Of a stretch of DNA of 26,766 nucleotides, positions 4,929-26,766 are shown piece by piece. Every line of letters begins with the position of its first letter. Position 1 is the stretch's first letter. The stretch is taken from the IMG/VR virus record IMGVR_UViG_3300040856_002372, positions 1-26,766 of that record; one strand, written 5' to 3'. The notes under the pieces are model-generated. The model had not been told where the DNA came from. It ran no database searches and was given only the letters and a program-made list of their open reading frames with translations. Source of the DNA: a virus (taxonomy: Duplodnaviria; Caudoviricetes). The position numbers and the translations under genes are program-made.

Positions 4929-5395
4929 GCGTAGTCGTGAATAGTCTTTACCCACCACCAAAACATGTCTGTCGATAATGTGTGCCGCATAATGTTGATG
5001 CGGTACGCGACAAGACGCACATTCATTTGTGAATATCCCTGATCGTTGTTTATTCGGTCGATTGAGGCATTAAATTCTTTAGCGCCAGAACCATCCAGAT
5101 GATGCGTAAGGGTAACCCCCGATATCGCGCAGCGACCTTTCTGCTTGTTCCAGATGTCAATTACGTCTTCTGGCGTCAGCGACCAGTCATGTGTCTTCTG
5201 TCTGTTGTACTTGAGCTTTGAAACCAGTTGCCGCAGGTAGGCTTCGGGAGACCCGTCCATAACCATGTGACGTTTACGTGATTTATGTTTCATGCGGCAT
5301 GGTTCGCATTGCTTGCGCCATTTGCCGCTCGGGTATTGCTCAAACTGATCTAGTAATAGCTCGGTGTTGCAAAGCGTACACGTCTGTGAATCCAC
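4919..5395 (-). CDS. HNH-like (His-Me finger) endonuclease-type protein with N-terminal Cys4 motif
   Basis: CxxC...CxxC (CTLC, CEPC), then QKGRCAISG...ASIDRINNDQGYSQMNVRLV, the SxDR...GY...N pattern of phage HNH-like proteins. GTG start at 5395 has GGGGGAG upstream. Confidence 0.65.
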   Translation of the reverse strand: MDSQTCTLCNTELLLDQFEQYPSGKWRKQCEPCRMKHKSRKRHMVMDGSPEAYLRQLVSKLKYNRQKTHDWSLTPEDVIDIWNKQKGRCAISGVTLTHHLDGSGAKEFNASIDRINNDQGYSQMNVRLVAYRINIMRHTLSTDMFWWWVKTIHDYACE

Positions 5396-5663
5396 AGGCT
5401 GTTTCTCCCCCGCTGCATAAACCGAAGATAAGCCCTTGAAATTATTTTGCAAAAATTTTTTTTGAAAAGTATTTCCGCACCGCTGACGCACTGTCTCCCT
5501 GCCGGATAGTCACGCGCCCCCTTCCCCCTTTTTCCGACTTGGAACCTTGTTTCGAGTCATTACGCATGAACCTTGTCCGTCAGTAACCCCATCAACCGCT
5601 CGTTCCTCGCGCTTGCCCATACATGTTTGTGAGCAATGACGCTCGCTTACTTGGAGATACACC

Positions 5664-5879
5664 ATGAACCAGTTTGACCTTCCGTTCGACCTGTACGAAG
5701 ACCCAACCATCGAGCTCAACTTCGAGACCGATATCGCTGTCTGTTACACCATCGAGGGACACGACACACTCTTCAATACCCGCGAAGACGCAGAACAAAC
5801 CCGCGACTTCCTATGCATGACCTACGGCAACCAAGACGGCTGGCCTATCAGCACCGTTGAATTCGAATACACCCGATAA
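5664..5879 (+). CDS. Hypothetical early protein
   Basis: GGAG RBS; first rightward ORF after the strand switch. Confidence 0.7.
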   Translation: MNQFDLPFDLYEDPTIELNFETDIAVCYTIEGHDTLFNTREDAEQTRDFLCMTYGNQDGWPISTVEFEYTR

Positions 5880-5889
5880 GGAGCCCATC

Positions 5890-6102
5890 ATGCACTCATA
5901 CTTCAAGCAACAAAAAGCCTACGCCGACGCCTTCAACGACTTCCTCAACGAGCAGAACGCTACCCCCGAGCAACGCCGTGAAGCCTACGCACGCATGTTC
6001 AAGATCGGACTCAAGAACGACACCGACCGAGTAATCAACGCCGTCAAGGAAAACCCCGGCAAGTTACTCACCGCCTTCATCGCTGGCGCAATCACCTTCT
6101 AA
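5890..6102 (+). CDS. Hypothetical protein with C-terminal KENPG motif and hydrophobic tail
   Basis: TAAGGAG RBS before ATG 5890; ends NAVKENPGKLLTAFIAGAITF. Confidence 0.7.
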   Translation: MHSYFKQQKAYADAFNDFLNEQNATPEQRREAYARMFKIGLKNDTDRVINAVKENPGKLLTAFIAGAITF

Positions 6103-6107
6103 CCAAC

Positions 6108-6123
6108 GGGGGCTCAGTCCCCC
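6108..6123 (+). terminator. GC hairpin GGGGG-CTCAGT-CCCCC, possible weak terminator or processing site
   Basis: Perfect 5-bp stem just after the stop at 6102; near-identical copy at 6710-6725. U-tail is poor. Confidence 0.4.
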
Positions 6124-6142
6124 ACCTTCTTTGGAGATCATC

Positions 6143-6352
6143 ATGAAATCACTTATCAAAATAGCTCTTGGCGTCCTATCCGTTTACATCCTTAGCATCG
6201 CCTACGCCGCATCAACCCAATCCGTAGTCCAACCTAACAGTATCCCCGACGACTACATCTGCATCAAAGACACCATGCCGGACTCTTACTTCTGCCTACC
6301 CGCATCAAAAGGCCCAGCCCCTTGGTATCTCGACACGGAGCATGCCTCATGA
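6143..6352 (+). CDS. Small exported or membrane protein
   Basis: GGAG RBS; signal-peptide-like N-terminus MKSLIKIALGVLSVYILSIAYA; two Cys. Confidence 0.65.
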   Translation: MKSLIKIALGVLSVYILSIAYAASTQSVVQPNSIPDDYICIKDTMPDSYFCLPASKGPAPWYLDTEHAS

Positions 6353-6534
6353 GCAAACTACTTATCGCAATTATCGCCGCCCTGTGGTTATTCACGGGCT
6401 TCTTCTTCTACTCAGCATGGATTGCCATCTGGGGTGACGACCTCGGTTCCCAAGCAGTCTTCACTCTTCTTTGGGGTAGCGCCTTACTAGCCTTCATCGA
6501 ACCTGAACCATCAACCATGGAGCATGACTCATGA
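6349..6534 (+). CDS. Small two-TM membrane protein
   Basis: ATGA overlap with the previous gene; two hydrophobic segments. Confidence 0.65.
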   Translation: MSKLLIAIIAALWLFTGFFFYSAWIAIWGDDLGSQAVFTLLWGSALLAFIEPEPSTMEHDS

Positions 6535-6719
6535 ACATCAAACCAGTTATCAACACCGCTAAGCTCTTCGCCCGTGAAGCATGGACCTTCGCTAAGGAGA
6601 ATCCGGGGGAGCTGTTGCTCTCCTTTATCACCGTCGCCGCCTTCGATATCGCTGAGTCACTCGACGGCATCGAGGAAATGGACGGATACCTATTCATCGA
6701 CCAGGAGCCGGGGGCGTAG
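6531..6719 (+). CDS. Hypothetical protein with KENPG motif
   Basis: ATGA overlap, GGAG RBS; contains FAKENPGELLLSFITVAAF. Confidence 0.65.
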   Translation: MNIKPVINTAKLFAREAWTFAKENPGELLLSFITVAAFDIAESLDGIEEMDGYLFIDQEPGA

Positions 6720-6728
6720 TCCCCCTTT
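6710..6728 (+). terminator. GC hairpin GGGGG-CGTAGT-CCCCC-TTT, probable terminator
   Basis: 5-bp GC stem over the stop codon, followed by TTT and a long non-coding stretch. Confidence 0.45.
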
Positions 6729-6760
6729 ACCGTCCGACAGGCGGGGCTCTGCGTGCCATT

Positions 6761-6788
6761 CATGCACCATGACCCATGAAACATGGTC
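6761..6788. repeat. CATG heptamer tract (4 units with perfect core)
   Basis: CATGCAC CATGACC CATGAAA CATGGTC read directly. Confidence 0.85.
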
Positions 6789-6830
6789 GGTTTTTCCGTG
6801 GCACATGGAGCCTGTCCGTGCCGCGTGGGG

Positions 6831-7114
6831 TGTGTGACATGTGTGTCAGGTGTGTGACACCCTTGTGTGCCAACCTTCTTAATCGCTAACCCATTGATAC
6901 ACATACACTTTCTCAAAATGTGTGTCATGTGTGTCGGGGTTACGCGATTTTTGTTTCACATAGACACGTTTTTGTTTTTTCTTATTTTTAATTTTCCCCT
7001 TATGAACAAAACCTTAAAAAGCTGACACACATGGTAATAGCAAGCAATAGCCTCAAATTTGCTGTCACACAACCTGTCACACACCTGTCACACATTGGCC
7101 ATTTCTGACACACA
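6831..7114. repeat. Two opposed arrays of 9-bp iteron-like repeats (TGTGTGWCA) around an AT-rich core; candidate replication origin
   Basis: Forward copies at 6831, 6840, 6851, 6864 (TGTGTGCCA), 6919, 6928 (TGTGTGTCG). Reverse copies (TGWCACACA) at 7023, 7063, 7075, 7086, 7106. T/A-run core at about 6947-7020. Confidence 0.75.
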
Positions 7115-7161
7115 AGACCCTATTATTTGTAGGGTTATTACCATTTTGTCCTATTTTTGTC

Positions 7162-7196
7162 CATGAACCATGCATCAGGAGACATGAACCATGAAC
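7162..7196. repeat. CATG heptamer tract (5 units, includes RBS and start codon)
   Basis: CATGAAC CATGCAT CAGGAGA CATGAAC CATGAAC. Confidence 0.85.
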
Positions 7197-7364
7197 GATC
7201 TCATAAATGAAATAGACCAGTTGTGCCGCATGCACACTCAAGCATGTAACGAGGACGACTGGCTCAAAGCACAGCGTAGTGATGACGAACTAGCGTCTGC
7301 GTTCCAGGCTCTAGGCAAGTACATCTACTACAACCAGTTCCACAACCCCCAACAAGAGGCATAA
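7191..7364 (+). CDS. Hypothetical protein (57 aa, below the ORF-track cutoff)
   Basis: AGGAGA RBS; MNDLINEIDQLCRMHTQACNEDDWLKAQRSDDELASAFQALGKYIYYNQFHNPQQEA-stop. Confidence 0.65.
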   Translation: MNDLINEIDQLCRMHTQACNEDDWLKAQRSDDELASAFQALGKYIYYNQFHNPQQEA

Positions 7365-7367
7365 ACC

Positions 7368-7568
7368 ATGTACCACGTTTATTGGGTCCACGATCAAGAT
7401 CTTCATGTAACCAAACGAGACACTCTGAAGGAGGCAGAGTGGGATCTCATGGTCCACAAAGAGCTCTATGGCAACAAGGCATGGATCTCAAAAGAGGTAG
7501 ATGTAACCACCACGGCTACTCGTTCCTCGCAGCCGACCATGACGTTTAGTGAAGTAGTTGGCGTTTAG
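7368..7568 (+). CDS. Hypothetical protein
   Basis: GAGG RBS; starts 3 nt after the previous stop. Confidence 0.6.
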   Translation: MYHVYWVHDQDLHVTKRDTLKEAEWDLMVHKELYGNKAWISKEVDVTTTATRSSQPTMTFSEVVGV

Positions 7569-7599
7569 TACTACATCGTCTGTTGCTTCGAAATCAAAT

Positions 7600-7614
7600 A
7601 TTAGCTGTACTAAC
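7600..7614. promoter_or_regulatory. Palindromic operator copy 2 (ATTAGCTGTACTAAC)
   Basis: One mismatch to ATTAG-N5-CTAAT. Intergenic, overlapping a possible -10 (TAACAT, 7611-7616) upstream of the gene at 7640. Confidence 0.65.
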
Positions 7615-7639
7615 ATTAATCAACGTAAGGAATACGCAC

Positions 7640-8305
7640 ATGAACCTAGCACAATCTTTCATCCCCGGCGCTCTCCAAATGCTTTGCACTGGCAAGTCCG
7701 GCACCTACACCACCAACCTGTCCAACTACATCGCAGGCTTCACCGACGCTGATACTCCAATCGACGTGGCATACGCCAAAGCCGCATTCGAGTGCAACGG
7801 CGAGCGCGAGTCAGCTCCGTTCCCAACCTTCGGTGTTCTGGGTCACATGCAGACACTGATGGATCGCATCATGTGGAACGCACGCAAGCTTGACATCGCA
7901 TTCCAGCGAGCCGAGCAACAGGAGTTAGAGTCAGGTGGCATCTACGGCCTCGACCTTGCACAGACTGCAATGGATGAAGTCAACGTCCACGACATCGCCC
8001 GCGACCGCATCAAGGACGCTGTTCAGTCTGACTACGAGCTGTTGTTCACCACGCAGACTCTGATCATGGCTGAGCTTGGCATCGACGGCGAGACATTCGA
8101 CATCGATCTGCTGTTCTTCAACCCGTCTACCTACGACGAGCAGTCAGATTCGTGGGTCAAGCCGTCACCAGCTTCCAGCTACGACGAAGCCTTCCGCATC
8201 ATGCAGGAGACAGTCGACGAGCTCAAAGCTAAGGAGACCAAGACGGCTCTCGCAGGCTTCATGGCCAACCGAGCGGCGGCACTTGAAGCACGACTCGCCG
8301 CATAA
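7640..8305 (+). CDS. Hypothetical protein (221 aa), apparently its own transcription unit
   Basis: TAAGGA RBS before ATG 7640; operator and possible promoter upstream, strong terminator downstream. Confidence 0.8.
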   Translation: MNLAQSFIPGALQMLCTGKSGTYTTNLSNYIAGFTDADTPIDVAYAKAAFECNGERESAPFPTFGVLGHMQTLMDRIMWNARKLDIAFQRAEQQELESGGIYGLDLAQTAMDEVNVHDIARDRIKDAVQSDYELLFTTQTLIMAELGIDGETFDIDLLFFNPSTYDEQSDSWVKPSPASSYDEAFRIMQETVDELKAKETKTALAGFMANRAAALEARLAA

Positions 8306-8317
8306 GCGTTACTCCAC

Positions 8318-8352
8318 CCCGGTGCCACTCGTTGGCATCGGGTTTTTTTTTT
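8318..8352 (+). terminator. Rho-independent terminator
   Basis: Stem CCCGGTGCCA / TGGCATCGGG (one G-U pair) followed by T10. Confidence 0.9.
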
Positions 8353-8377
8353 CAGGCCACCAGGGGATCAGCGTGCC

Positions 8378-8581
8378 ATGAACCATGTATCACCAATCGA
8401 AATCATGTTGTCTGCAGTCGAGGCCAACGACCGTGTCTTCTGGTTCACAAGTGAGGAACAAGCGCGTCAGTTCTGCCGAGACCGATGGGATAAAGAGACT
8501 GACGGCGTGCCCTTCATCAAGCACTACACAGTCCGCAGCCAGGAGGAGCTGGTTGCTTTGCTTAACGAACGTGCCAGCTAG
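8378..8581 (+). CDS. Hypothetical protein
   Basis: AGGGGA RBS; fits the tiling of plus-strand ORFs. Confidence 0.65.
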   Translation: MNHVSPIEIMLSAVEANDRVFWFTSEEQARQFCRDRWDKETDGVPFIKHYTVRSQEELVALLNERAS

Positions 8582-8615
8582 CCCACCACTACGCATAAAC
8601 CATGGAGCATGAAGC

Positions 8616-8879
8616 ATGAATTACTACCGGTTTCACGGCCAATTTATTACCGACAAATTCATAGACGTGATTGCTGACAACTATGACGAAGCGTTTCGTA
8701 TTGCTGAAAAACACATGCACGAAGCCGTAGACGAACTATTGATATCAGATCGCGGATTAGATTTTTACAGTCCAGATATCACTGTTACTAACACAGAAGA
8801 CAACAAACAACCCAGCACCGAATACCCTATCAAAGTTGTATCTGACTGGGCTTTTACTTCAGAGGATTATCCAGCATGA
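8616..8879 (+). CDS. Hypothetical protein
   Basis: GGAG RBS inside a heptamer tract; ATGA coupling to the next gene. Confidence 0.7.
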   Translation: MNYYRFHGQFITDKFIDVIADNYDEAFRIAEKHMHEAVDELLISDRGLDFYSPDITVTNTEDNKQPSTEYPIKVVSDWAFTSEDYPA

Positions 8880-9112
8880 GCGATGAAAACCATTACAAAC
8901 ACGTTTACGTCAAGGTCGGTTTGATCGTGCCTGACAACGATCTCGCCATTGACTACGCCACTGATTACATCGGTGAAATAGTCAGCGAAGAACACTGGCA
9001 GCTCACAGACTCTGTTTACAACCAGCTTGAAATACGCGACGCCTTCGATAAGACCTTCTTAGACGTGCCCGCATTTGTTTACGACTTTTTGGAAGACGAA
9101 ACAGCACCATGA
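8876..9112 (+). CDS. Hypothetical acidic protein
   Basis: GAGGA RBS; ATGA overlaps at both ends. Confidence 0.7.
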   Translation: MSDENHYKHVYVKVGLIVPDNDLAIDYATDYIGEIVSEEHWQLTDSVYNQLEIRDAFDKTFLDVPAFVYDFLEDETAP

Positions 9113-9369
9113 GCCAAGAAGACTTTCCATACAACGAGATCCGTGCGGAGGGCGGTGATCTGTTCACAACCATCCATGCCGCAAGAGAAGCAGGCTTTGA
9201 TGATAACCAGATCTGGTCCGTCGTCGACGCTGACTCAGATGACCCTGCTGTACACAGCACTTGGGTGTATGGCCCGCCCCGCCACTACGTGAACCTGCTC
9301 GGTTATGTATGTACCCGAGAAAGACACGACGACAACACTTACTACGAGGAGGTGTTTTACCGTGACTGA
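9109..9369 (+). CDS. Hypothetical protein
   Basis: ATGA overlap; protein-like sequence (QIWSVVD...HYVNLLGY). Confidence 0.7.
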   Translation: MSQEDFPYNEIRAEGGDLFTTIHAAREAGFDDNQIWSVVDADSDDPAVHSTWVYGPPRHYVNLLGYVCTRERHDDNTYYEEVFYRD

Positions 9370-9610
9370 AAATGACTTAAATGTGTTCCAGGCCCACAAC
9401 ATCGTGCACCAAGCACTCAACGCTGCTGATGTGCCCGATGACGTAATTAACGCCTGGTTTTTAATCTCAGACACACTGTTCCCACATGGGTATAAAGGGT
9501 ATGACGATGACTTTGTCATAACCTTTGAGCCAGATGCCATCGTGTATGACGTAATGGAAGAAGCTCAAAATACTAAACCTGTGCTTACTATCGTTCCAGA
9601 GGTCAAATAA
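9362..9610 (+). CDS. Hypothetical protein
   Basis: GTG start at 9362 after GAGGAGG; TAATG coupling to the next gene. Confidence 0.65.
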   Translation: MTENDLNVFQAHNIVHQALNAADVPDDVINAWFLISDTLFPHGYKGYDDDFVITFEPDAIVYDVMEEAQNTKPVLTIVPEVK

Positions 9611-9912
9611 TGGACCTGCAAGAGCGGATATTGCACAACAGTCTTTACTTAAGTGGCGACGAATTTGATGTCACCGCACTAGCTCAGCGCCTTGGTACAT
9701 CCCAACGGAAAATACACGACGCATGTGTACAGTTATGCGACACACGGCGCTTAATCAAACATCAACACCCAAGCAAAGCCATAAAATACTCGAGACCCGT
9801 CTTCAATAAATGGCTTTGTGAACCATGGATCAAGTACCGCCCACCATGTCCCACGCCTGAAGAACTAACACCAAGTACTGCATTCATCTACGGAGGACCT
9901 ATACATGACTGA
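9610..9912 (+). CDS. Putative winged-HTH DNA-binding protein
   Basis: FDVTALAQRLGTSQRKIHDACVQL...RLIK resembles an HTH plus wing. Confidence 0.5.
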   Translation: MDLQERILHNSLYLSGDEFDVTALAQRLGTSQRKIHDACVQLCDTRRLIKHQHPSKAIKYSRPVFNKWLCEPWIKYRPPCPTPEELTPSTAFIYGGPIHD

Positions 9913-10093
9913 CAACCTCAAGCACGACCCATGGACCAAGCTAACAGACATGGCGGCAGCACATGTAGAAGTGTGCATTCGAAGTGAAAACCGCAAGGCT
10001 GTTGAAAAGTTCATTAACGATCTGTGCAACAACACCAAGCAGAAGCGAGATGTCCTGGTGGACTTTCTCTGCACTAAACCAATAAAGGAGTGA
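9905..10093 (+). CDS. Hypothetical protein
   Basis: GGAGGA RBS. Confidence 0.65.
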   Translation: MTDNLKHDPWTKLTDMAAAHVEVCIRSENRKAVEKFINDLCNNTKQKRDVLVDFLCTKPIKE

Positions 10094-10096
10094 CTT

Positions 10097-10402
10097 ATGA
10101 TATTAGCTGGACTAATCGCAGCAGCAGGATTGCTGTTCCTTCTCTTCAAATTCGGCATGCGCCGCGTCATTAACTACGACATCTACGTGGATCTGTTTGT
10201 CACCACCCTGCTTATGTTCCTACTTGCGGGCACATTCAGCGGCATGATGGCAGCACTCTTCGCTGGCTTGGTTGTGTCTGTCTTGCTGTTTCTCATGAAG
10301 CGCACCATGCGTCATGAGTCATTCGGCATGATCAAGACCGACAAGTTTCCGTACCGCAAGCTAGGTTGGCGCGTGCATGAGCCACAAGGCGTGGCGTCGT
10401 GA
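10097..10402 (+). CDS. Small multi-TM membrane protein
   Basis: AAGGAG RBS; three hydrophobic segments. Confidence 0.75.
   Translation: MILAGLIAAAGLLFLLFKFGMRRVINYDIYVDLFVTTLLMFLLAGTFSGMMAALFAGLVVSVLLFLMKRTMRHESFGMIKTDKFPYRKLGWRVHEPQGVAS
10102..10116. promoter_or_regulatory. Palindromic operator copy 3 (ATTAGCTGGACTAAT)
   Basis: Exact ATTAG-N5-CTAAT just after the start codon at 10097. Confidence 0.7.
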
Positions 10403-10677
10403 CTAACGACATTGCCAAACAACTGCTCCAACAAATCAAAGAAATCAACGAGGCATATGCTATGCACTTAGATCTATCCGAAGGTCGCATGCCGTGCTCC
10501 ATCACGGACGACCCACTTAATGACTACTCTCACTGGCACGACAAGACCGGCCCGTATGCGGAGCGTGAAGAGGAAGATTGCTTCGACGCTTACCGCGAGC
10601 AACGTGAGCGTAGCCAACGCCCAGAGCATGACCCTAACGAACCTAACAACTACGAGAGCAAAAGCCATGGCTATTGA
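10399..10677 (+). CDS. Hypothetical protein
   Basis: GTGA overlap with the previous stop. Confidence 0.55.
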   Translation: MTNDIAKQLLQQIKEINEAYAMHLDLSEGRMPCSITDDPLNDYSHWHDKTGPYAEREEEDCFDAYREQRERSQRPEHDPNEPNNYESKSHGY

Positions 10678-10936
10678 TAACGATACATACAACGAAATAT
10701 CTAGCAAGCTTGTTTCTGCCATCGACCAAATTTGGAAAGAGCGCAACGCAGAAGACATAGGCCCGGTAATCGCATCTGCGTTTTGTCGCATGGGGGCATC
10801 CATGTTCTTTTACTGCAGCGAAGACAAGACCGCAGCAGCAATTGCTACGCTCGAAGCTACAGCAGCTGGTATCGAAGAAGCCATGAGACACAAAGAAGCA
10901 GACATGCATCAAGCAGCATCTGCCACGTTGCAATGA
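10667..10936 (+). CDS. Hypothetical protein
   Basis: Internal ATG (MAIDNDTYNE...) of ORF 10520-10936 fits the gene tiling. Confidence 0.6.
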   Translation: MAIDNDTYNEISSKLVSAIDQIWKERNAEDIGPVIASAFCRMGASMFFYCSEDKTAAAIATLEATAAGIEEAMRHKEADMHQAASATLQ

Positions 10937-11008
10937 GCGAACAGTACTGGGCGCTGCTGTTAGTCGTGCTTATCTACTTTTCACTTCTAATTTACGAAGG
11001 AGTCGAAC

Positions 11009-11209: not shown

Positions 11210-11397
11210 TGGGTCACCCATATCACTATACCGTCAGATGCGAATGGTGCGAAGGCGTTGTTGACGACAACGGTTCTGACTACCGAAACGATGATGATGG
11301 TCATATTTACCACTTTGATTGCTTCTCAGAAATGGAAGCAGAACTGCGTGCCGAGCAATACGCAAAGCATGCACCAGACAACATGGAGGTCGCATGA
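11209..11397 (+). CDS. Small Zn-finger-like protein
   Basis: CxxC...HxxC (CEWC, HFDC); TAATG coupling. Confidence 0.65.
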   Translation: MGHPYHYTVRCEWCEGVVDDNGSDYRNDDDGHIYHFDCFSEMEAELRAEQYAKHAPDNMEVA

Positions 11398-11543
11398 ATG
11401 ATTACATCGTTACTTGGCGAATTGAGCTTACAGCAAATTCAAAACAAGAAGCTGCTGAATTAGCACGAGAAATCCAGCTAGACCCAAACAGCAAAGCACT
11501 TGTTTTTGAGGTTGCAGAAGATATTGATCTGGAGGTCGCATGA
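11394..11543 (+). CDS. Hypothetical protein (49 aa)
   Basis: GGAGGT RBS; ATGA overlap; MNDYIVTWRIELTANSKQEAAELAREIQ. Confidence 0.65.
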   Translation: MNDYIVTWRIELTANSKQEAAELAREIQLDPNSKALVFEVAEDIDLEVA

Positions 11544-11734
11544 TCAAAACCCGACAAGAAGCAATCCTCTGGTGTTTAAAACATCTCCAACATCACTTAC
11601 TTCATACAGCCACGGACCATGAACCACGCCCTTTTATTCAGGTAGATCCTGCCGAGCTCACGCAGCTTCTGTCTTACCTATCAACCGAGCAATTCTCAAG
11701 AGGAGACACCTATGAGAACAATTCGCCCAGCTGA
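11540..11734 (+). CDS. Hypothetical protein
   Basis: GGAGGT RBS; ATGA overlap. Confidence 0.6.
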   Translation: MIKTRQEAILWCLKHLQHHLLHTATDHEPRPFIQVDPAELTQLLSYLSTEQFSRGDTYENNSPS

Positions 11735-13377: not shown

Positions 13378-13379
13378 CC

Positions 13380-14498
13380 ATGGACCATGAATCATCAACC
13401 ATGCGACGTGTTACATCGGCACGTTCGCAGCTTATTCTTAATGAGCCATTCTTTGGTGTATTAAGTCTCAAGCTCAAAGTACGTGAGCGTAATGACATTG
13501 ATACCGCCAGCACTGATGGTACTCATTTAGATTTCAACGCCAAGTTTTTAAACAAGCTGACAGACATGGAGTTGCAGGGCCTTATTGCACATGAGGTCAT
13601 GCACTGTGTCAGTCATCACATGACACGGCGGCAAGAACGTGAGCCCATGCAGTGGAACATTGCATGTGACCACGCTATCAACCTGTTTCTTTTGGACACA
13701 GGATTCATCCTGCCTGACGGTGGCGTGCACGATGAACAGTATCGTGACATGACAGCCGAAGCCATATACGAACACCTCGACGAGAACTCCCAGTCCTGTC
13801 CATGGGGTCTCGTCATGGACGCGGGTGAAGGCGCTATTGACGCAGATTCCAGCTCAGGACTCGAAGTATCGTGGGATCTGGCTGTGCAACAAGCAGCCGA
13901 AGTAGCCAAAGCAGCAGGCAAGTTACCCGGAGGTATAGATCGCCTCATCGACCACCTGCAAAAAGCTCAAATCGACTTCCGTCAACACCTGTGGCCATTC
14001 TTTACAGGCAACAGTAAGAACGACTTCACCTGGCGTCGGCCCCACCGTGCATACATCAGTGAAGACGAGTACTTTCCAAGCATGTACGACGAGGCTCCTG
14101 GCACATATGTTGTTGCTATGGACACATCGGGATCTACAAGCGACATGATTCACAAATTCCTTTCTGAGATTTGTGCTATCCACGAGGAGCTAAGACCCGA
14201 ACGTATGGTCTTCATTCAATGTGACACACAAGTCGATGAGGCACGCATTGTTGATGTAACCAGCGATGAAGAGCTGACCAGCGACATCCTCAATGTAGGC
14301 GGCGGAGGTGGCACACTGTTCCAGCCCATATTTGACTGGGTTGATGAAAACGACGTTGACCCCGAAGGAATGGTCTTTTTCACTGACTTGTGCCCGGCTG
14401 ACGATTACCCCTTTGAGCCAAACTACCCTGTGCTGTGGGTGTCCACCGAAGCTGATCAAGAAGCTCCGTGGGGGAAAACCACTTATTTGTTGCACTAA
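13380..14498 (+). CDS. DUF2201-type protein: HExxH metallopeptidase-like domain plus VWA domain
   Basis: TASTDG, IAHEVMH, WNIACDHAIN, W.RP.R, MIDAS DTSGS, GGGGTLF, FFTD, PVLW. Confidence 0.88.
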   Translation: MDHESSTMRRVTSARSQLILNEPFFGVLSLKLKVRERNDIDTASTDGTHLDFNAKFLNKLTDMELQGLIAHEVMHCVSHHMTRRQEREPMQWNIACDHAINLFLLDTGFILPDGGVHDEQYRDMTAEAIYEHLDENSQSCPWGLVMDAGEGAIDADSSSGLEVSWDLAVQQAAEVAKAAGKLPGGIDRLIDHLQKAQIDFRQHLWPFFTGNSKNDFTWRRPHRAYISEDEYFPSMYDEAPGTYVVAMDTSGSTSDMIHKFLSEICAIHEELRPERMVFIQCDTQVDEARIVDVTSDEELTSDILNVGGGGGTLFQPIFDWVDENDVDPEGMVFFTDLCPADDYPFEPNYPVLWVSTEADQEAPWGKTTYLLH

Positions 14499-14551: not shown

Positions 14552-14863
14552 ATGCTAAACATAAACTTCAAAGAAGCACTCATCACCGTCATCGAGATCA
14601 ACAAAAAACACATATCGCCGCTGGACTGGGCACGCGTTTCACCAAACTTTCCTTACGGAAAGACAGCGTGGGTTGAGGTGCCTACAGAAGATGTTGATGC
14701 ACTGGGGGAGCTTGTAAAAGAAGGCGCGTCATTTGCTTACGCGTCACTTTTACAAAGCTGTGATCGCAACGATATCAAGTGGATTCATTTTTCAGATGAT
14801 TATCCACTGATTAAAGGGCTAAAGGTTTTTGAGAATGAGTGGGCCAAAGAGCCAACCAATTAA
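14552..14863 (+). CDS. Hypothetical protein
   Basis: ORF following the promoter; no strong RBS. Confidence 0.6.
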   Translation: MLNINFKEALITVIEINKKHISPLDWARVSPNFPYGKTAWVEVPTEDVDALGELVKEGASFAYASLLQSCDRNDIKWIHFSDDYPLIKGLKVFENEWAKEPTN

Positions 14864-15047
14864 GCAAAACATTCTGGACCGTATTCGCATAGAACAAGAA
14901 ACAAAAGAGTTCTTGGAGCGAGGCGGAAAAATACAACAGCTTCCAAAACACGCAAGCGCGTGGGACGAAGACGCGGTGGAATTTATACCCCGTAAGAAAA
15001 TGCGAGGACGCAAACGTGAGCAAGACGCTCCTGACATTGGACTTTGA
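14835..15047 (+). CDS. SutA-like RNA polymerase-binding-domain protein (putative)
   Basis: DRIRIEQETKEFLERGGKIQQLP resembles the conserved Pseudomonas SutA core (EEFLSRGGKVQEI). Confidence 0.6.
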   Translation: MSGPKSQPIKQNILDRIRIEQETKEFLERGGKIQQLPKHASAWDEDAVEFIPRKKMRGRKREQDAPDIGL

Positions 15048-16830
15048 AACATATTACGACACCAGACTATCTCTCCAAAAAATAACCACTATGGAATATG
15101 TCCGCGACCCCCAGTTCAAAGTCTGGGGAGTGGGCTTACAAGTTGACGACGACAAACCATACTGGGTAGGAGAAGACGAAGTCGAATCTGCGCTCGCAGA
15201 ATTTGACTGGGATAACACACACTTAGTGTGTCATAACACACCGTTTGACGGTTTTGTGCTGACCCAACACTACGGGCTTAAACCAGCGTATTACTACGAC
15301 ACTGCGGCTATGGCACGGGGGTGGTGGCCTGGAATGTCAGCATCGCTTCGAGCTACCAGCGAACGCTGTTTCCCCACCGACGAGTCGATGCGTAAAGGCG
15401 ACGAGTTAATCAACGCCAAAGGCATATACGACTTACCCCCTGACATCGAAAAGCAAATAGCTGGCTACTGCATCCAAGACGTAGCGCTTACTTACGCTAT
15501 ATTTAAACAACTATACGAAGCCTACCCGCAAAGCGAGCTGGATCTTATCGATCTAACTACCCGCATGTTTTGTGAACCTGTCTTGCAAATCGATCGGGAA
15601 CGGTTAACCACGTACCATGAATCAGAGCTCATGGCTGGCGAAGAAGCAATCAAGAACAGCGGATTGTCCAGGGAAGTGCTTGCTTCAAACCAAAAGTTTG
15701 CAGCAGCTATTGAAGAGCTGGGTATCACCGTGCCAACTAAAGTCAGCCCAAACACAGGGCTTTCTATACCAGCGTTCGGCAAGAACGACGCGGGCTGGAA
15801 GCAGCTGTGCAACATGTACCCTGAGCATCAGCACATCTGGGATGGTCGTACAGCAGTAAAATCCCGTATCAATGAGACACGCGCATCCAGGTTCCTGGCT
15901 GCAGCTCACCCCATTACTAACGAACTTCCTGCCCCTCTGCGGTATTACGCCGCTCACACAGGTCGTTTTGGAGGCACAGATAAGCTTAACCTGCAAAACC
16001 TCCCCCGTGGCAGCGAACTGCGTAAGTGCTTAATCGCACCAGAAGACAAACTTGTTTACGTGGCTGACCTTAGTAACATCGAAGCCCGCATGCTGGCATG
16101 GCTTGCCGGTGAAGACAGCTTATTAGCCCAATTTGCCAGTGGTGAAGACATTTACAGCAACTTCGCATCCACTGTCTATAACAAGCCAATCAATAAAAAC
16201 GACCACCCGACAGAGCGTTTTGTTGGCAAGACCGCTATTCTCGGTCTTGGCTATGGCATGGGCGCTGCAAAATTCCAAGCAACACTTGCGTCCGGGGCAG
16301 CAGGCCCTTCGCTTAATTTTAGCGATTCACAGGCGGCGTCAGTAGTAGGTAAATATCGTCAGACATATAGCCGTATCCCGATACTGTGGAAACGCTTAGA
16401 GAACTACTTGACCCTATCTTTGTATGAACAAACAGCGCTCCCTTACTCCGTACTTATATTCGATAGAGGGGAAATCAGGTTGCCAAATAAAATGTCGCTT
16501 AAATACAAAGACTTGCGAGTTCACAATGGACAGCTTCAGTACATTGGGCGTAATGGCATGGAAAAAACATACGGCGGAAGGCTGACAGAAAACGTCGTAC
16601 AAGCTCTGTCCCGTATTGTTATTACAGATGCTATGCTACGCCTGCAAAACAAAATACCAGATGGCACTGTTGCACTTACAGTGCATGACGAAGTGGTAAT
16701 AATTGCCCCAAGTCAAAACCCTGATGCTACAATGGAGCTTGTCATTGACACTCTGTGCAGGCCACCTCCCTGGGCACCGGATTTGCCCTTAGACGCAGAA
16801 GGGGGGTACGCACATAACTACAGTAAGTGA
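15016..16830 (+). CDS. DNA polymerase family A with 3'-5' exonuclease
   Basis: ExoI TLDFET, ExoII HNTPFD, ExoIII YCIQDV, HTGRFGG, NLQNLP, motif A ADLSNIEAR, motif B RFVGKTAILGLGYG, motif C TVHDEV. Confidence 0.96.
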   Translation: MSKTLLTLDFETYYDTRLSLQKITTMEYVRDPQFKVWGVGLQVDDDKPYWVGEDEVESALAEFDWDNTHLVCHNTPFDGFVLTQHYGLKPAYYYDTAAMARGWWPGMSASLRATSERCFPTDESMRKGDELINAKGIYDLPPDIEKQIAGYCIQDVALTYAIFKQLYEAYPQSELDLIDLTTRMFCEPVLQIDRERLTTYHESELMAGEEAIKNSGLSREVLASNQKFAAAIEELGITVPTKVSPNTGLSIPAFGKNDAGWKQLCNMYPEHQHIWDGRTAVKSRINETRASRFLAAAHPITNELPAPLRYYAAHTGRFGGTDKLNLQNLPRGSELRKCLIAPEDKLVYVADLSNIEARMLAWLAGEDSLLAQFASGEDIYSNFASTVYNKPINKNDHPTERFVGKTAILGLGYGMGAAKFQATLASGAAGPSLNFSDSQAASVVGKYRQTYSRIPILWKRLENYLTLSLYEQTALPYSVLIFDRGEIRLPNKMSLKYKDLRVHNGQLQYIGRNGMEKTYGGRLTENVVQALSRIVITDAMLRLQNKIPDGTVALTVHDEVVIIAPSQNPDATMELVIDTLCRPPPWAPDLPLDAEGGYAHNYSK

Positions 16831-16831: not shown

Positions 16832-17017
16832 ATGTCGCGACTCGTATTGACAAGGAAAGTCAACGAAAAGATCACCATACGAAAAGATGGCGAAGAAGTT
16901 GCGACCGTGACAGTTGGCCGGATTGATCGCAATCAGGTCAGAATCGTTTTCGAAGCAGATCCAGAAGTAGAAATTACTCGCCACTCGCGAGATAAAAAAT
17001 CTGCCGATCAATATTAG
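16832..17017 (+). CDS. csrA: CsrA/RsmA-like RNA-binding translational regulator
   Basis: 61 aa; LVLTRKVNEKITI...VTVGRIDRNQVRIVFEADPEVEITR aligns with CsrA (LILTRRVGETLMI...[25 protein letters not shown]). Confidence 0.8.
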   Translation: MSRLVLTRKVNEKITIRKDGEEVATVTVGRIDRNQVRIVFEADPEVEITRHSRDKKSADQY

Positions 17018-21935: not shown

Positions 21936-21950
21936 ATTAGTGTGACTAAT
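21936..21950. promoter_or_regulatory. Palindromic operator copy 7 (ATTAGTGTGACTAAT)
   Basis: Exact match, extended to GTATTAG-N5-CTAATAC; upstream of the ORF at 21974 and the helicase. Confidence 0.75.
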
Positions 21951-21973
21951 ACGTAACTGCGTCAGGAGGACAA

Positions 21974-22144
21974 ATGCGGATCAAAGTCGAGATCTCCCTC
22001 GATGACTACGAATGGGATGGCCGCACTCTCCTATTAAAACTCGTTCCTTCTGAGTACACCGAAGAAGACGAGGACCCTGACCCTGAAGAAATCATTATTG
22101 AAGAACCTGAAATCAAGCTAAAAGTTATTGGCCAAAAATCATGA
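21974..22144 (+). CDS. Small acidic hypothetical protein (56 aa)
   Basis: AGGAGGA RBS; MRIKVEISLDDYEWDGRTLLLKLVPSEYTEEDEDPDPEEIIIEEPEIKLKVIGQKS-stop. Confidence 0.65.
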   Translation: MRIKVEISLDDYEWDGRTLLLKLVPSEYTEEDEDPDPEEIIIEEPEIKLKVIGQKS

Positions 22145-22154
22145 GACATGAAAA

Positions 22155-23504
22155 ATGCAAAAACCCTTTGAGCACCAAGCAACAACAACTCAGTTCATAC
22201 TCGATAACCCCCGAGTTCTCATCACAAGCGATCCCGGCACAGGCAAAACACGTTCTGTACTCGACGCTTACGCCCAACGGCGTGAAGGTAAGCTTCTCGT
22301 CCTTGCCCCACTCAGCATCCTCGCTGCCAGTTGGGGAGACGACTGCGCCAAATTCCAACCAGGACTGAAATACGCTGTTGCATACGCACGTAATCGTGCC
22401 GAGGCATTCAAAGCAGACGTAGATATTGTCATCACAAATCATGACGCCGTTAAATGGCTAATGAAAAACAAACAGTATCTGAACGGCTTCGACACATTGT
22501 GCATCGACGAGTTTACTGCGTTCAAAAATAAAGACAGCCAACGTAGTAAAGCTGCTGCCCGCCTTGCGGAGCACTTTGAATATCGCATCGCTATGTCGGG
22601 CACCCCAAACAGCAACACAATTTTAGACATCTGGCACCCGGCGTTGCTTGTTGACGATGGTGAGCGGCTAGGCAAACGCTTCTACGGATTCCGTGGCGCT
22701 GTATGCACACCTCAATTCAATGGCTTTGCAAATGTATGGGTAGACAAGCCAGAAGCTCAAGAAATAATCGCTGCTGCTATAAAAGATATTAACGTGCGTT
22801 ACACGCTTGAAGACTGCCTAGATATGCCGGAGCAGTCAGTCAACACCATGTACGTCGACCTGCCACCTAAAATCCTGCAGCAATACAACACCCTGGCGGA
22901 AGATTCCGTGCTGTATACCGGTAAGGGCACTATCAACGCTATCCACGCAGGTGCTAAGGTCAAAAAGCTCCTACAGCTGTGTACCGGCGCTGTGTATGAT
23001 GACCATGGATCATCGCTCATGGTTCATGATGCACGATACGAGCTTGTTATGGACCTTATACAAGCACGCGACCACAGCCTGGTGGCATTCAACTGGCGTC
23101 ATGAACGCGAAAAACTAACCGAGCTTTCTCAAAAAGCCGATATCAAATACGACTTTATCGACGGCAGTACCCCCGCCAAAAAACGCAAGGACATCGTTGA
23201 CCGCATGCAAGCAGGTCAGCTCCAGGTTGTCTTTGCACATCCACAATCTGCTGGCCACGGACTCACTCTTACTCGTGCCACATCTGTTATCTGGGCATCA
23301 CCCACGTACAACGCTGAGCACTATCAGCAGTTCAACCGTCGTATCTACCGTGCTGGTCAAACTAAAAAGACCGAGGTAATACAGATCGCTGCTCGCGACA
23401 CCTGGGAACCTGATGTCTACGAAAAGCTTCAAGACAAACTTGGACGAATGGAAGACTTATTAAACGTACTAAACAAACTAAACCAACTGAGGAAAACAGC
23501 ATGA
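22155..23504 (+). CDS. SNF2-type SF2 helicase
   Basis: DPGTGKT, CIDEF, MSGTP, KLLQL, SAGHGLTLT, QFNRRIYRAGQ. Confidence 0.92.
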   Translation: MQKPFEHQATTTQFILDNPRVLITSDPGTGKTRSVLDAYAQRREGKLLVLAPLSILAASWGDDCAKFQPGLKYAVAYARNRAEAFKADVDIVITNHDAVKWLMKNKQYLNGFDTLCIDEFTAFKNKDSQRSKAAARLAEHFEYRIAMSGTPNSNTILDIWHPALLVDDGERLGKRFYGFRGAVCTPQFNGFANVWVDKPEAQEIIAAAIKDINVRYTLEDCLDMPEQSVNTMYVDLPPKILQQYNTLAEDSVLYTGKGTINAIHAGAKVKKLLQLCTGAVYDDHGSSLMVHDARYELVMDLIQARDHSLVAFNWRHEREKLTELSQKADIKYDFIDGSTPAKKRKDIVDRMQAGQLQVVFAHPQSAGHGLTLTRATSVIWASPTYNAEHYQQFNRRIYRAGQTKKTEVIQIAARDTWEPDVYEKLQDKLGRMEDLLNVLNKLNQLRKTA

Positions 23505-23866
23505 ACTTAGGTGAACTCATCGACGCACGCGTCAAAAACAAACAACAAATTGACCAGCTAAATTCAGAACTCAAAGAGCTTAACAAAGAGAAGCAAGATC
23601 TCGACTGGCAATGCATCCGTAACTTGGATGAACAAGGCTCTACAAAGGGTGGTAACTCTGCAGCAAACATTTCTGTTACCGAAGATACTGTGCCCGAAGT
23701 CTATGACTGGGAACAATTCTTCGAATGGCTCAGCGAAACCAGCAACTTTGAAGTATTACAACGTCGGCTGTCTAGTACCGCATGCAAAGAACTGTGGGCT
23801 ATGGGCGTTGACATCCCTGGAGTAAAACAGCGAGAACTTCGCAAACTATCAATCCGTTTAATCTAA
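23501..23866 (+). CDS. Conserved-looking phage replication-module protein (N-terminal coiled coil)
   Basis: ATGA overlap; VYDWEQFFEW...LQRRLS...IPGV. Confidence 0.75.
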   Translation: MNLGELIDARVKNKQQIDQLNSELKELNKEKQDLDWQCIRNLDEQGSTKGGNSAANISVTEDTVPEVYDWEQFFEWLSETSNFEVLQRRLSSTACKELWAMGVDIPGVKQRELRKLSIRLI

Positions 23867-23875
23867 CCTTGAGGT

Positions 23876-23890
23876 ATTAGCATGACTAAT
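23876..23890. promoter_or_regulatory. Palindromic operator copy 8 (ATTAGCATGACTAAT)
   Basis: Exact match centred on the start codon at 23882. Confidence 0.75.
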
Positions 23891-24556
23891 TTAGCAATCA
23901 AACTTGACGACAAAGTACCAGCACACATCAAACTGGATGGCATTGGTCGTGGCAACGAAAACGTAGGGCAAAACATTGTTGTCCCCCGGATCAAGTTGCT
24001 GCAAAAAATGTCGAACGAAGTCGACAAACACCACAAAGAGCACATTGCAGGTGCTGATGTTGGTGACTTTATCAACACTCTGACTAAACAAGTCATGTCA
24101 GAGATCTACTGCTTATCTCTTACTTTCAAAGTTGAGTGGGCCGTATGGCGCAACATGGAGGTAGGCGGCGGTTACGGTGGCAGCTTTGACAACGAGCAAG
24201 CAGCCAAAGAGTGTGTCTCCTCCCAAGAAGTTCCCGAAGAGTGGGACATCAAAGAGAACCACGCGCATCTGCTGTTGATCAAGAACCCCGAAACTGGGGA
24301 ACTTGACACCACTCCAGTCATATTCGACTTCACGGGCTCAAAGCTAGCAACATCAAGGGCTTGGAATAGCAAGATCGCGCTTCAGGGCGGAGATCGATTT
24401 GCTTCTTTGTGGAAGATTTCTTCCAAATCAGTCGAAAGCAAGAGCGGGTTCAGTTACATGAATATCGACCTTGACCTTCAAGGCTGGGCTCAGAAAGAAG
24501 ACTACGAGGTAGCAGAAGCTCTATATGAGCAGTACAACACCTCTACCTTCGCATAA
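23882..24556 (+). CDS. Putative single-stranded DNA-binding protein
   Basis: PRIKLLQKMS.EV motif, beta-rich aromatic core, replication-module context; function is inferred. Confidence 0.5.
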   Translation: MTNLAIKLDDKVPAHIKLDGIGRGNENVGQNIVVPRIKLLQKMSNEVDKHHKEHIAGADVGDFINTLTKQVMSEIYCLSLTFKVEWAVWRNMEVGGGYGGSFDNEQAAKECVSSQEVPEEWDIKENHAHLLLIKNPETGELDTTPVIFDFTGSKLATSRAWNSKIALQGGDRFASLWKISSKSVESKSGFSYMNIDLDLQGWAQKEDYEVAEALYEQYNTSTFA

Positions 24557-24562
24557 GGATGC

Positions 24563-24997
24563 ATGAACGAGCACGGTTTTATTAAAGCCGTGCATCGGCA
24601 TCTCTCACCTGAAGTGTATCGCTGGAAAATCCACGATACCTATACCGGCGGCGTCCCTGACGCTTTTTATATGGGACCCGCTGGTTCCCTTTGGGTTGAG
24701 TACAAATATGTCACATTGCCCAAAAGAAGCACTACGGTTGTCACCTTTGGCTTATCACAATTACAGATAGCCTGGTTGACAAAAGCCCAAATGTGCGGAC
24801 AATTAGCTGTGGTAATTGTCGGTTATGAGCGGTCAGCAGTGGTTGTGACAGATCCCCAGCTTTTTAAAGGCATGACAAAAACTCAGCTTCAAGATGAAGC
24901 GCTTTCCTTTCAATTAACTGCTAATTGGATAGAGAGTCACGTAATATCAAGAGGATATACCCGTGGCAACAAAAAACTTACCAATTGCAGTTCGTAA
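24563..24997 (+). CDS. VRR-NUC / Holliday-junction-resolvase-like PD-(D/E)XK nuclease
   Basis: MNE..F, GVPDAF, WVEYK, LSQLQIAW. Confidence 0.8.
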   Translation: MNEHGFIKAVHRHLSPEVYRWKIHDTYTGGVPDAFYMGPAGSLWVEYKYVTLPKRSTTVVTFGLSQLQIAWLTKAQMCGQLAVVIVGYERSAVVVTDPQLFKGMTKTQLQDEALSFQLTANWIESHVISRGYTRGNKKLTNCSS

Positions 24998-25559
24998 CCT
25001 TCGAAAAATATGGGACACCAAAAAAGACAAATTCGAAGTCACGCAAGTACAAGCAGCCAAAAAACTAGGCTGGACCCAAGGCGCGTTTAGTCAATACCTA
25101 AATAATCTTACAGAGCTACATGCTGACGCCGTCGCTAAGCTCGCTAACTTTTTAGAAGTTGATCCCCACGAAATTGATCCAAACTATAATCCCGTAGAAG
25201 CAGAGCGGTTCCGCGTGCCTGTTACTTGGGTACATGGCGGAACTTTACGTATCAGCGAAGAAGCACAATATCGGCGACGCGTTATTGGATCTGTATTTGA
25301 CGAACAATACCAAGCCGTATGCGGCGTCAGACTCGAAAAAGACTTACCGCCGATCGGCTATGCGGGCCAACTAATACTATGCTACGACTTAATAAAATGC
25401 CCTAAACCAAAACTTAGAACAGGTAGTCGTACTCCCCAGTGGCTAATAATCAAAAAGAAAAAAAGCAACTGTTTAGAAGTCGTTGAATGGGGCGATAAAA
25501 CACCCAAAAATCAACTAGATACAAAACTACTCCCAATCGTCTCATATTTAATTAACTAG
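24963..25559 (+). CDS. Cro/CI-type HTH transcriptional regulator (candidate repressor)
   Basis: NLRKIWDTKK...VTQVQAAKKLGWTQGAFSQYLN...KLANFLEVDPHEIDP resembles the lambda CI N-terminal domain. Confidence 0.8.
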   Translation: MATKNLPIAVRNLRKIWDTKKDKFEVTQVQAAKKLGWTQGAFSQYLNNLTELHADAVAKLANFLEVDPHEIDPNYNPVEAERFRVPVTWVHGGTLRISEEAQYRRRVIGSVFDEQYQAVCGVRLEKDLPPIGYAGQLILCYDLIKCPKPKLRTGSRTPQWLIIKKKKSNCLEVVEWGDKTPKNQLDTKLLPIVSYLIN

Positions 25560-25561
25560 TC

Positions 25562-25610
25562 TTGCATTAGCAAAAATTTTTGGTAATGTTTGCATATTAG
25601 CCTTTCTAAT
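25562..25610 (+). promoter_or_regulatory. Possible promoter (TTGCAT-N16-TAATGT with TG extension) followed by operator copy 9 (25596-25610, ATTAGCCTTTCTAAT)
   Basis: Intergenic and AT-rich; also contains the near-palindrome CATTAGCAAAAATTTTTGGTAATG (25565-25588). Confidence 0.6.
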
Positions 25611-25629
25611 AGATCTACATGAGGTAGCA

Positions 25630-25860
25630 ATGTCAGACGCAGTTCAGCGCCCTCCCCACTACAACAACGGCAGCATCGAGTGCATCACTGCAATCGAGGC
25701 GTCTATGTCTTTTGCTGAGTGGCAGGGCTATCTAAAAGGCAACTGCATGAAGTACCTATGGCGTTACCAATACAAAGGTAAACCTCTTGAAGATTTACAA
25801 AAGGCTAAGTGGTACTTAGAAAAACTAATAAACGCCCAGGAGGAAGAAGATGGGTTTTAA
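25630..25860 (+). CDS. DUF3310-family protein (T7 gp1.7 / SaV-like)
   Basis: DAVQRPPHY...IECI.AI...GYLKGNCMKYLWRY..KG...EDLQKAKWYL. Confidence 0.88.
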   Translation: MSDAVQRPPHYNNGSIECITAIEASMSFAEWQGYLKGNCMKYLWRYQYKGKPLEDLQKAKWYLEKLINAQEEEDGF

Positions 25861-25975
25861 CACAATAGAAAACTGGCTAAATGGGTCAGGCGATTCAGGA
25901 TATCCAATAAACGTCGGATTTTACACCCAAAACCACGGACCTTGGTTTATAGAAATTCGTGGAGGTAAATACTAA
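25850..25975 (+). CDS. Small hypothetical protein (41 aa)
   Basis: AGGAGGA upstream; overlaps both neighbours (TAATG coupling downstream). Confidence 0.45.
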   Translation: MGFNTIENWLNGSGDSGYPINVGFYTQNHGPWFIEIRGGKY

Positions 25976-26193
25976 TGGAACAGCTTTTAGTACAGAAATA
26001 CGGTCCACTCATGGACCTGCCAGAAGTAGCTGAGCTGTTTAAGCTTGAGCCTAAATCAATTTACCAACAAATTTATCGGGGCAAACTTGATGTGCCGCAC
26101 ATCAAGCACGGGAAAAAATACTTATTCCCTACACCCGAAGTAGCTAGTTACTTGGAATCCAAAATTACTAACTACCCACCGTCTGCTCTTTAG
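25975..26193 (+). CDS. Excisionase-like HTH DNA-binding protein
   Basis: LMDLPEVAELFKL...SIYQQI.RG.L...IKHGKKYLF...EV..YL fits the MerR/Xis-type wHTH; abuts the integrase. Confidence 0.75.
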   Translation: MEQLLVQKYGPLMDLPEVAELFKLEPKSIYQQIYRGKLDVPHIKHGKKYLFPTPEVASYLESKITNYPPSAL

Positions 26194-26766
26194 CAGCCAG
26201 CACCTCACCAGGCTTTAACTGTGTGTAGCGCTTTAAGGTGTCCCAAGACTTGTGCCCGGACACCAGCGCTACTTGCTCTATAGACAGACCACTCTCAAAC
26301 AACCGACTACAAGCTTCATGTCGAAGGTCATGAAAATGCAAATCCCCGCAGCCCGCCAGCTGTGCTACATCCGCAAACTTATCTGACACAGCACCAGCAG
26401 TAGCCACCTGGCAAAAGACTCTTCCCCGCTGCTTGCTGCATAACCATAAACCATGAAGCAAGGACCATGTCTCGTGGAACATGGGGATTGTTTCATCGTT
26501 GCCCTCCTTCTCGTGAGGATCTTTGCGATCTCGGATAGTTAATGTGCGATTCTCAAAGTCCACGTCTTCCCACGTCTGCCGATGAATCTCCCCCAGACGC
26601 ATAGCGTTGTGGACGGCAATAACAATGAAGTGTGAGATCCAGTGCCCTTTGGCTGCTTCCATAAGTTTTTCGTACTCACCAGAGGCAAGCCTCCGTGCAC
26701 GCTTGCGACTAGGACCCACCAACTTCATCTTAGCGAGGGCGTAGCGCGCGTCTCTCACGGGGTTTG
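26168..26766 (-). CDS. int: Tyrosine recombinase/integrase, C-terminal catalytic domain (5' end outside the window)
   Basis: AMRLGE (Arg), K, HFHDLRH (HxxR), SGH and KRY catalytic Tyr. Confidence 0.93.
   Translation of the reverse strand, partial: NPVRDARYALAKMKLVGPSRKRARRLASGEYEKLMEAAKGHWISHFIVIAVHNAMRLGEIHRQTWEDVDFENRTLTIRDRKDPHEKEGNDETIPMFHETWSLLHGLWLCSKQRGRVFCQVATAGAVSDKFADVAQLAGCGDLHFHDLRHEACSRLFESGLSIEQVALVSGHKSWDTLKRYTQLKPGEVLAAKEQTVGS

Follow-up and report, generated by a model that had tools for sequence, protein, structure and literature searches.

The sequence analysed here, called the window below, is the whole 26,766-nucleotide stretch (positions 1 to 26,766) of the IMG/VR virus record IMGVR_UViG_3300040856_002372 (Duplodnaviria; Caudoviricetes). 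It contains genes for a P22-like portal and TerL, an early region of small genes, an AAA/Nmad5/vWA block, DNA polymerase A, a CsrA-like protein, a primase-helicase, an SNF2 helicase, an XRE repressor, an Xis-like protein and a tyrosine integrase, and a near-identical contig (G001) lengthens it to 50.6 kb. Distributed over this DNA, in spacers, across gene starts and inside genes, are tracts of adjacent 7-bp units with a CATG core, which are the subject of this report. The results below confirm the observation: the tracts are real, selected and family-wide.

All 17 tracts listed in the original prediction, which had been made by eye from the sequence, were found at their positions. Among the 194 CATG in the window, 16, 13 and 10 pairs lie at distances of 7, 14 and 21 bp, respectively, against a mean of 1.39 at off-phase distances, and the phasing has faded by 28 and 35 bp (2 and 1 pairs). 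CATG ranks first among the 256 4-mers for 7-bp phasing, with all others far below. The proposed excess over codon-preserving shuffles was borne out: the 39 observed pairs were matched by none of 500 synonymous-codon shuffles in either scheme (20.1±2.4 pairs when non-coding DNA was kept and 5.1±2.2 when it was shuffled, 500 shuffles each). Four-unit tracts with a score of at least 5 number 15, compared with 0.30 in shuffles (n = 200); the number of tracts in the window is 15-26, depending on the threshold. The tracts starting at 8377, 11361 and 11611 score only 4, a level reached by 4.5 tracts per window in shuffles, and each has a phased counterpart in relatives. The unit is AAN-CATG and polar (CATG-A-A-N), with A in 50% and 56% at the first two spacer positions and in only 29% and 34% at the same positions after isolated CATG. 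Spacers are diverse, 31 being distinct among 74 adjacent pairs.

A start codon is overlapped by 9 of 18 window tracts (expected 2.5), with ATG in register in 8, and 23 of the 42 starts in the window read CATG. Except for the tract in the endonuclease gene, all tracts given here are on the plus strand. Those across start codons lie at 6334-6354 (start 6349), 7162-7196 (7191), 7353-7380 (7368), 8377-8397 (8378; weak, with a counterpart in the relative G004), 8587-8621 (8616) and 22133-22160 (helicase start), and the six-unit tract at 6495-6536 contains both the ribosome-binding site and the start codon of a family-wide gene, 6531-6719. Another six-unit tract, 13379-13420, occupies codons 1-14 of the metallopeptidase/vWA gene; weak tracts stand before start codon 11394 (11361-11388, retained in G002, G003 and G004) and at the start of gene 9905-10093 (9913-9940, stronger in G004 and G015). 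Further into genes are 5277-5304 on the minus strand, inside the endonuclease gene and scoring best on its sense strand (counterpart in G004); 9817-9858 in the 3' part of gene 9610-9912 (retained in G002, G003, G004 and G015); 10306-10333 in the 3' part of the membrane-protein gene 10097-10402; a degenerate tract, 10882-10937, at the end of gene 10667-10936; the weak 11611-11631 within gene 11540-11734 (retained in G002, G003 and G004); 23004-23038 within the SNF2-type helicase, conserved in part; and 26445-26486 within the integrase gene, which scores best antisense to the integrase. Non-coding DNA holds 6761-6788, with four exact cores and counterparts in G004, G006, G007 and G009. The original prediction saw no clear tract in the portal, terL, polymerase or primase genes; in the window, portal, terL and primase are without any tract that reaches the threshold, but the polymerase does contain one, at 15609-15636, whose core is carried by a His codon and which is conserved across the family. 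The distribution is one-sided: across four CATG genomes, phased pairs number 33-38 in the early/replication arm (expected 3-4) and 1-4 in the late arm (expected 0.4-2). Tracts are confined to the former, to both sides of an origin-like element described below and to the integrase region.

Two strong tracts, 6761 on the left and 7162 on the right, border an origin-like element at 6833-7112, in which inward-facing TGTGACA/TGTCACA iterons enclose an AT-rich core. From this layout we infer that the element is the replication origin; iterons around an AT-rich core recur with other iteron words in L386, L379, G006 and G007, and in L386 and L379 the arrays flanking the element diverge outward from it. 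Since the iteron word of G007 differs although its heptad core is CATG, iterons and heptads probably have separate readers. The right-hand iterons, CTGTCAC, have a spacing of 11-12 bp, similar to that of a Pho box, and KPP25, a cultured distant relative, carries a similar element. Directly after the element, 7640-8305 encodes a family-wide acidic protein, mostly helical in a predicted model (predicted local distance difference test score 87).

The position of the tracts beside this element allows them to be read as replication signals directed away from the origin, at which the primase-helicase or a helper would load or prime. The divergence in L386 and L379 is as expected for such sites, and the primase is distantly related to the NrS-1 primase-polymerase (27% over 313 residues), which, in the part of the published account consulted, primes at GTG/GTGG and TTTGGTTA templates (PMC8718748); units with a CACG core read CGTGGTT on the reverse strand, comparable with the GTG/GTGG sites. 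On the other hand, the late half of the genome is almost without tracts, priming needs neither tandem phase nor start-codon register, the iteron word varies independently of the heptad core (G007 compared with the window), and base skew tracks gene direction. We regard this explanation as rather improbable.

The arrays are a family-wide feature. A survey of 160 overlapping loci (2.0 Mb) yielded 246 tracts at period 7 and 155 at period 14, while the control periods 4, 5, 8, 10, 11, 13 and 16, all not divisible by three, gave 35-84; some family loci (L414 and L422) showed no clear tract. The CATG core is confined to one clade, and other clades have RAC-CACG or GAC-CCTA. In the sister lineage the unit is (A/G)AC-CACG, at sites homologous to CATG tracts. 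In a quick tree of polymerase, primase and helicase, in which G006 forms a long branch, one branch separates 7 CATG from 10 CACG genome sets with a Shimodaira-Hasegawa-like approximate likelihood ratio support of 100, and the core thus appears to follow the phage tree, changing once.

Another possibility is that the tracts attract a host protein, or serve a host methyltransferase as grouped targets. No phage reader has been found (see below), and the core may track host groups, both of which would suit a host factor. The core follows the phage tree, however, and the host genus does not carry the lattice: a single triple each occurs in just 2 of 81 genus genomes, and the host metagenome-assembled genome (MAG) has 36 pairs spaced 7 bp apart, compared with 28 spaced 10 bp apart, and no triple. 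A host reader is therefore very unlikely.

Selection on the tracts is seen in comparisons with relatives. Phased cores outside start codons were retained in 114 of 144 alignments to 11 relatives, compared with 270 of 608 for isolated CATG, rows that come from related genomes and hence are not independent. In the integrase, three or four cores are kept in 13 of 13 CATG-clade sequences, all reading IPM(L/F)HETW(T/S)LLHGLWL without any indel within the clade, and both tract and peptide are absent from all 21 other integrases compared. Synonymous variation in this tract affects 6 of 20 codons, as against 93 of 126 elsewhere (p = 2e-4). At the polymerase His codon, all 7 CATG-clade rows have CAT, and the 11 other rows with His there all have CAC. 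For the helicase tract, conservation holds for three cores in 5 of 11 close relatives, and is reduced to two cores in 4 and one core in 2. Phasing is thus kept in orthologous coding regions, as the lattice interpretation had anticipated: coding tracts arose without indels and owe their retention to point changes, and those in integrase and polymerase are kept.

The same alignments bear on the idea that slippage or gene shuffling produced the tracts incidentally, either as microsatellite-like heptamers or as shared linkers at gene junctions. Tract copies inside one genome have 19-24 identical bases in common (G002, G003 and G008), and strain variants have gained or lost genes at tracts: the gene upstream of the 6334 tract was lost at a 6-base match (joint 6140-6347), and 190 different letters occur at 8581-8597, at the 8587 tract. 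Simple period-7 repeats are also frequent in viral contigs; a scan for four-fold CATG found mostly unrelated simple repeats, and because a GTAC control was about equal (approximately 140 CATG and 120 GTAC stretches), CATG is not special across viruses. In the family, however, coding tracts altered the protein but show no change in length, spacers vary while cores are kept, as the original prediction had argued, and 7-bp unit indels number 0 among the 12 indel rows listed of 29. Slippage as the sole cause is weak, and we consider it highly improbable. Because of the shared 19-24 bases and the early genes gained or lost at tracts, it is likely that the tracts also act as short homologies for early-gene swapping, a role that leaves those inside enzymes unexplained.

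Orientation is a further property of the arrays. In five CACG genomes, early-arm tracts are sense in 22 cases and antisense in 2, whereas shuffles give 0.36 and periods 8, 10 and 11 give 0, by a model which is partly circular, having been seeded from sense-strand tracts. Polarity is weaker in the window, where the core is palindromic. Sense polarity would be natural if a phage RNA-binding protein, the product of the CsrA-like gene 16832-17017 or another, covered the ribosome-binding site and start codon of early mRNAs; the start ATG in register in 8 of 18 tracts points the same way, as do the presence of the CsrA-like gene in 17 of 17 genome sets compared and the reading CA-N-GGA of some units. 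This alternative, raised as the weaker one in the original prediction, loses ground because GGA occurs in only 23 of 228 CA.G units. In addition, CGTG is as frequent as CACG, the CsrA-like protein of G006 is without the arginine of the last strand, to which we presume a functional role, the perfect 6761 tract sits behind a terminator-like hairpin whose G007 equivalent is a clear terminator, and the integrase tract scores best antisense. An mRNA reading is accordingly unlikely. Tracts antisense to the integrase and behind the hairpin, together with coding tracts formed without indels, favour reading at the level of DNA. One-mismatch units agree with this: in 76 distinct CATG-clade tracts the commonest are CACG (13) and CGTG (12), and equal tolerance of a variant and its mirror suits a near-dyad core read on double-stranded DNA.

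We therefore propose, with a probability of about one half, that the tracts are polar binding lattices for a cooperatively binding phage protein, with the geometry of omega arrays and the placement of stoperators. Runs of 3-8 units on double-stranded DNA would be bound by a protein, likely phage-encoded, with one dimer per unit, and the bound protein would damp transcription of early and replication genes. The 4-bp near-dyad core (C-R-Y-G) with its loose 3-bp spacer would suit side-by-side stacking of dimers, as for omega on heptads. Start codons preceded by C could supply a fixed core, from which the ribosome-binding spacer would extend the array, and occupied lattices might then work as one-way roadblocks in the manner of stoperators. 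As lattices also cover the origin flanks, early shut-off may be tied to the start of replication. Arrays are retained in G006 (37 phased pairs), G011 and G012, none of which showed a match to repressor or integrase, and because of this the switch would not be limited to prophage immunity but would act as a general early-to-late or copy control. Of the cooperative DNA-binding lattice in the original prediction, the selected DNA-level lattice with omega-like geometry is supported, and the readers named for it are not.

The search for such a reader was made among phage proteins. TerS, the first of those named, has a recognition helix (helix 3) that is widely different among 7 CATG rows. The winged helix-turn-helix protein of gene 9610 and the XRE repressor have no match in the array-bearing G006, and the Xis-like protein has none in the CACG members G011 and G012; the attP side carries 10-bp repeats instead. 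Integrase and endonuclease are also without a match in G006. Gene 9905, ribbon-helix-helix-like by eye, has 27 close homologues only, with no Pfam match and no atlas match. For gene 7640, the confident helical model resembled nothing in PDB or BFVD, and for gene 21586, which was not found in six CACG loci, the best Z of the predicted model was 3.8. The first strand of Nmad5 is ribbon-helix-helix-like by eye, without a glycine turn or a solved relative, and there is a partial match in the array-free KPP25. The shared candidates remaining are genes 7640 and 6531, Nmad5, the primase C-terminus and virion proteins.

Another possibility is that the tracts, like the short repeat arrays of T7, guide packaging or the entry of DNA close to a physical end of the genome, with TerS or a virion protein as their reader. 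Tract density is highest just upstream of terS and declines along the early arm, as such a function would have it. Against this are the differing TerS recognition helices among CATG phages and the tracts 15-20 kb away within polymerase, helicase and integrase. In the contigs, starts and ends showed no pile-up. We give this possibility little credence.

Several results weigh against a cooperative lattice of the proposed kind. No reader was found among the candidates examined; Pfam scans covering 49 proteins of the window, 73 small ones from three relatives and 10 homologues gave no ribbon-helix-helix match, which for such short domains is easily missed; and the two folded candidates (genes 7640 and 21586) had predicted models without a match to a known DNA-binding fold. 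A column-wise covariation screen of shared proteins against the core gave no outlier, with the TerS row empty and too few CACG rows for gene 7640. KPP25 and phiA008, the closest cultured phages by TerL (41% and 49% identity), were each examined over 34 kb, in which no lattice was seen. Strong sense polarity, apart from the circularity noted above, and start-codon overlap fit an RNA-level reader equally, and omega arrays are non-polar. One-mismatch units favour a retained CA half (26 vs 51, p = 0.05; 0.46 without CAGG units), the polymerase CAT/CAC split may be a single inherited change, and a promoter scan, with 4 promoter-like sites compared with 8.7 in shuffles, does not show an overlap of tracts and promoters. 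Coverage by RNA contigs extended to 8 of 30 bins, at low depth, and has no bearing on expression.

As a more tentative variant, the tracts may be a chromatin-like layer, in which a phage protein of unrecognised fold would polymerise on phased heptad strips across 20 kb and simultaneously cover the flanks of the origin, the starts of early genes and the integrase region. The code word, which changes from lineage to lineage (CATG, CACG or CCTA), would be a private self-recognition key able to rewrite enzyme sequences.

The window is from a temperate phage. The 3' part of the tyrosine integrase gene is on the minus strand at 26168-26766. Because a related integrase lies after tRNA-Cys in a Luminiphilus MAG, and the tRNA 3' end is carried upstream of int in the phage, the host group is likely OM60/NOR5, judging from these sequences; the attachment junction at tRNA-Cys is in the MAG locus L260, 9360-10098. 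G001 and the window are 99.95% identical up to 25875 and 94% identical across xis and int (25875-26766), a drop which suggests that the integration module was exchanged recently. Upstream of int, G001 has TGACGCA-type repeats and 10-bp repeats, which may be integrase arm and Xis sites. Phage copies of two regulators, a SutA RNA-polymerase-binding domain protein (14829-15047) and the above CsrA-like protein, are likely directed at host gene expression. The family-wide small gene 6531-6719, whose product combines a KENP motif with a hydrophobic stretch and has an acidic tail, was found in 46 loci without a family match, and 5890-6102 is its likely paralogue. A second repeat motif of the CTCGTTCCTCGC type occurs in early intergenic DNA at 5597-5615 and 7516-7535, and other family members have similar motifs.

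Short-period arrays were also seen outside the family. Distant low-GC phages (TerL 34%) have period-7 CAAGC-type arrays in early genes, at 64-130, 874-930, 1315-1365 and 3489-3520 in L270 and also in L009, L023, L054 and L061, and a four-core CATG palindrome adjoining GTGTGACA; a link between the CAAG-type arrays near terL in L270 and the window's family is not established. Several period-7 GTAC-core arrays per contig occur in unrelated viral contigs (L136/L137/L144, L145/L146/L177, L159/L164 and L178/L179), perhaps another lattice system. One lineage, L299-L306, has abundant TAGT repeats at 5- and 10-bp spacing in 10-13 clusters per locus.

New relative to the original prediction are the change of core across the family, the polarity of the tracts and the origin-like element. 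The results point to a regulatory code that has so far gone undescribed, in an abundant family of uncultured marine phages to which phages of the OM60/NOR5 group belong; its signal is strong enough to alter integrase and polymerase codons. The natural variants CATG, CACG and CCTA at homologous sites are matched baits for the reader, and allow a joint shift of specificity in a phage protein and twenty dispersed sites to be tested. Should the reader prove to have a new fold, a new class of cooperative DNA binder would be represented by it.

The openly accessible literature searched, in its main texts, contained no description of these arrays, and comparison is therefore with systems sharing some of their features. 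Binding sites of CsrA/RsmA and the heptamer repeats of CsrB are 7-nt units near ribosome-binding sites, as are many of the present units, and the phage has a CsrA-like gene; unlike the ANGGA of those sites, GGA is present in 10% of phage units, mirror variants are tolerated, and tracts are also non-coding and antisense. Phage T7 has short arrays of 7-bp repeats, SRL and SRR, beside its terminal repeats near the start of the early region. The likeness is in the period, the podophage background and the location near the early-region start, whereas the T7 arrays are at genome ends only and the present tracts extend over 20 kb and inside genes. Iteron origins of the SaPI/P4 type are read by a primase-helicase, which this phage also has, and 6833-7112 resembles them in its inward iterons around an AT-rich core; the analogy covers the iterons and not the flanking heptad tracts, which vary independently. 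The arrays differ from slippage-prone simple repeats in that units are not near-identical and copy number is unchanged in coding tracts.

The closest likenesses are with two DNA-level systems, described here from the parts of the publications consulted. Omega, the ParB of plasmid pSM19035, places one dimer on each 7-bp unit of parS, whose six sites have 7-10 units each and lie over promoters; full function takes at least 4 units, and the consensus is WATCACW (PMC9499535). The phage tracts are likewise contiguous in strict 7-bp phase, with multiple sites per replicon and a short degenerate core. They differ from the omega sites as described there in the unit (AAN-CATG or RAC-CACG), in having 15-26 sites of 3-8 units at gene starts, at origin flanks and inside genes, and in being sense-polar where the omega units are of mixed orientation, and the phage scans found no ribbon-helix-helix or ParA gene. 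Repressors of the L5 type in cluster A mycobacteriophages (L5 and TipsytheTRex) use more than 20 asymmetric 13-mer stoperators, oriented with transcription, in short intergenic spaces (PMC9283540). About 20 or more sites across the genome, half of the window tracts at start codons, and an orientation following transcription are shared with these, to the extent that they are covered in that source. Stoperators, however, are single 13-mers for an immunity repressor, and the phage arrays are tandem heptads kept where neither repressor nor integrase was found. The phage arrays combine the geometry of omega with the placement of stoperators and are members of neither class.

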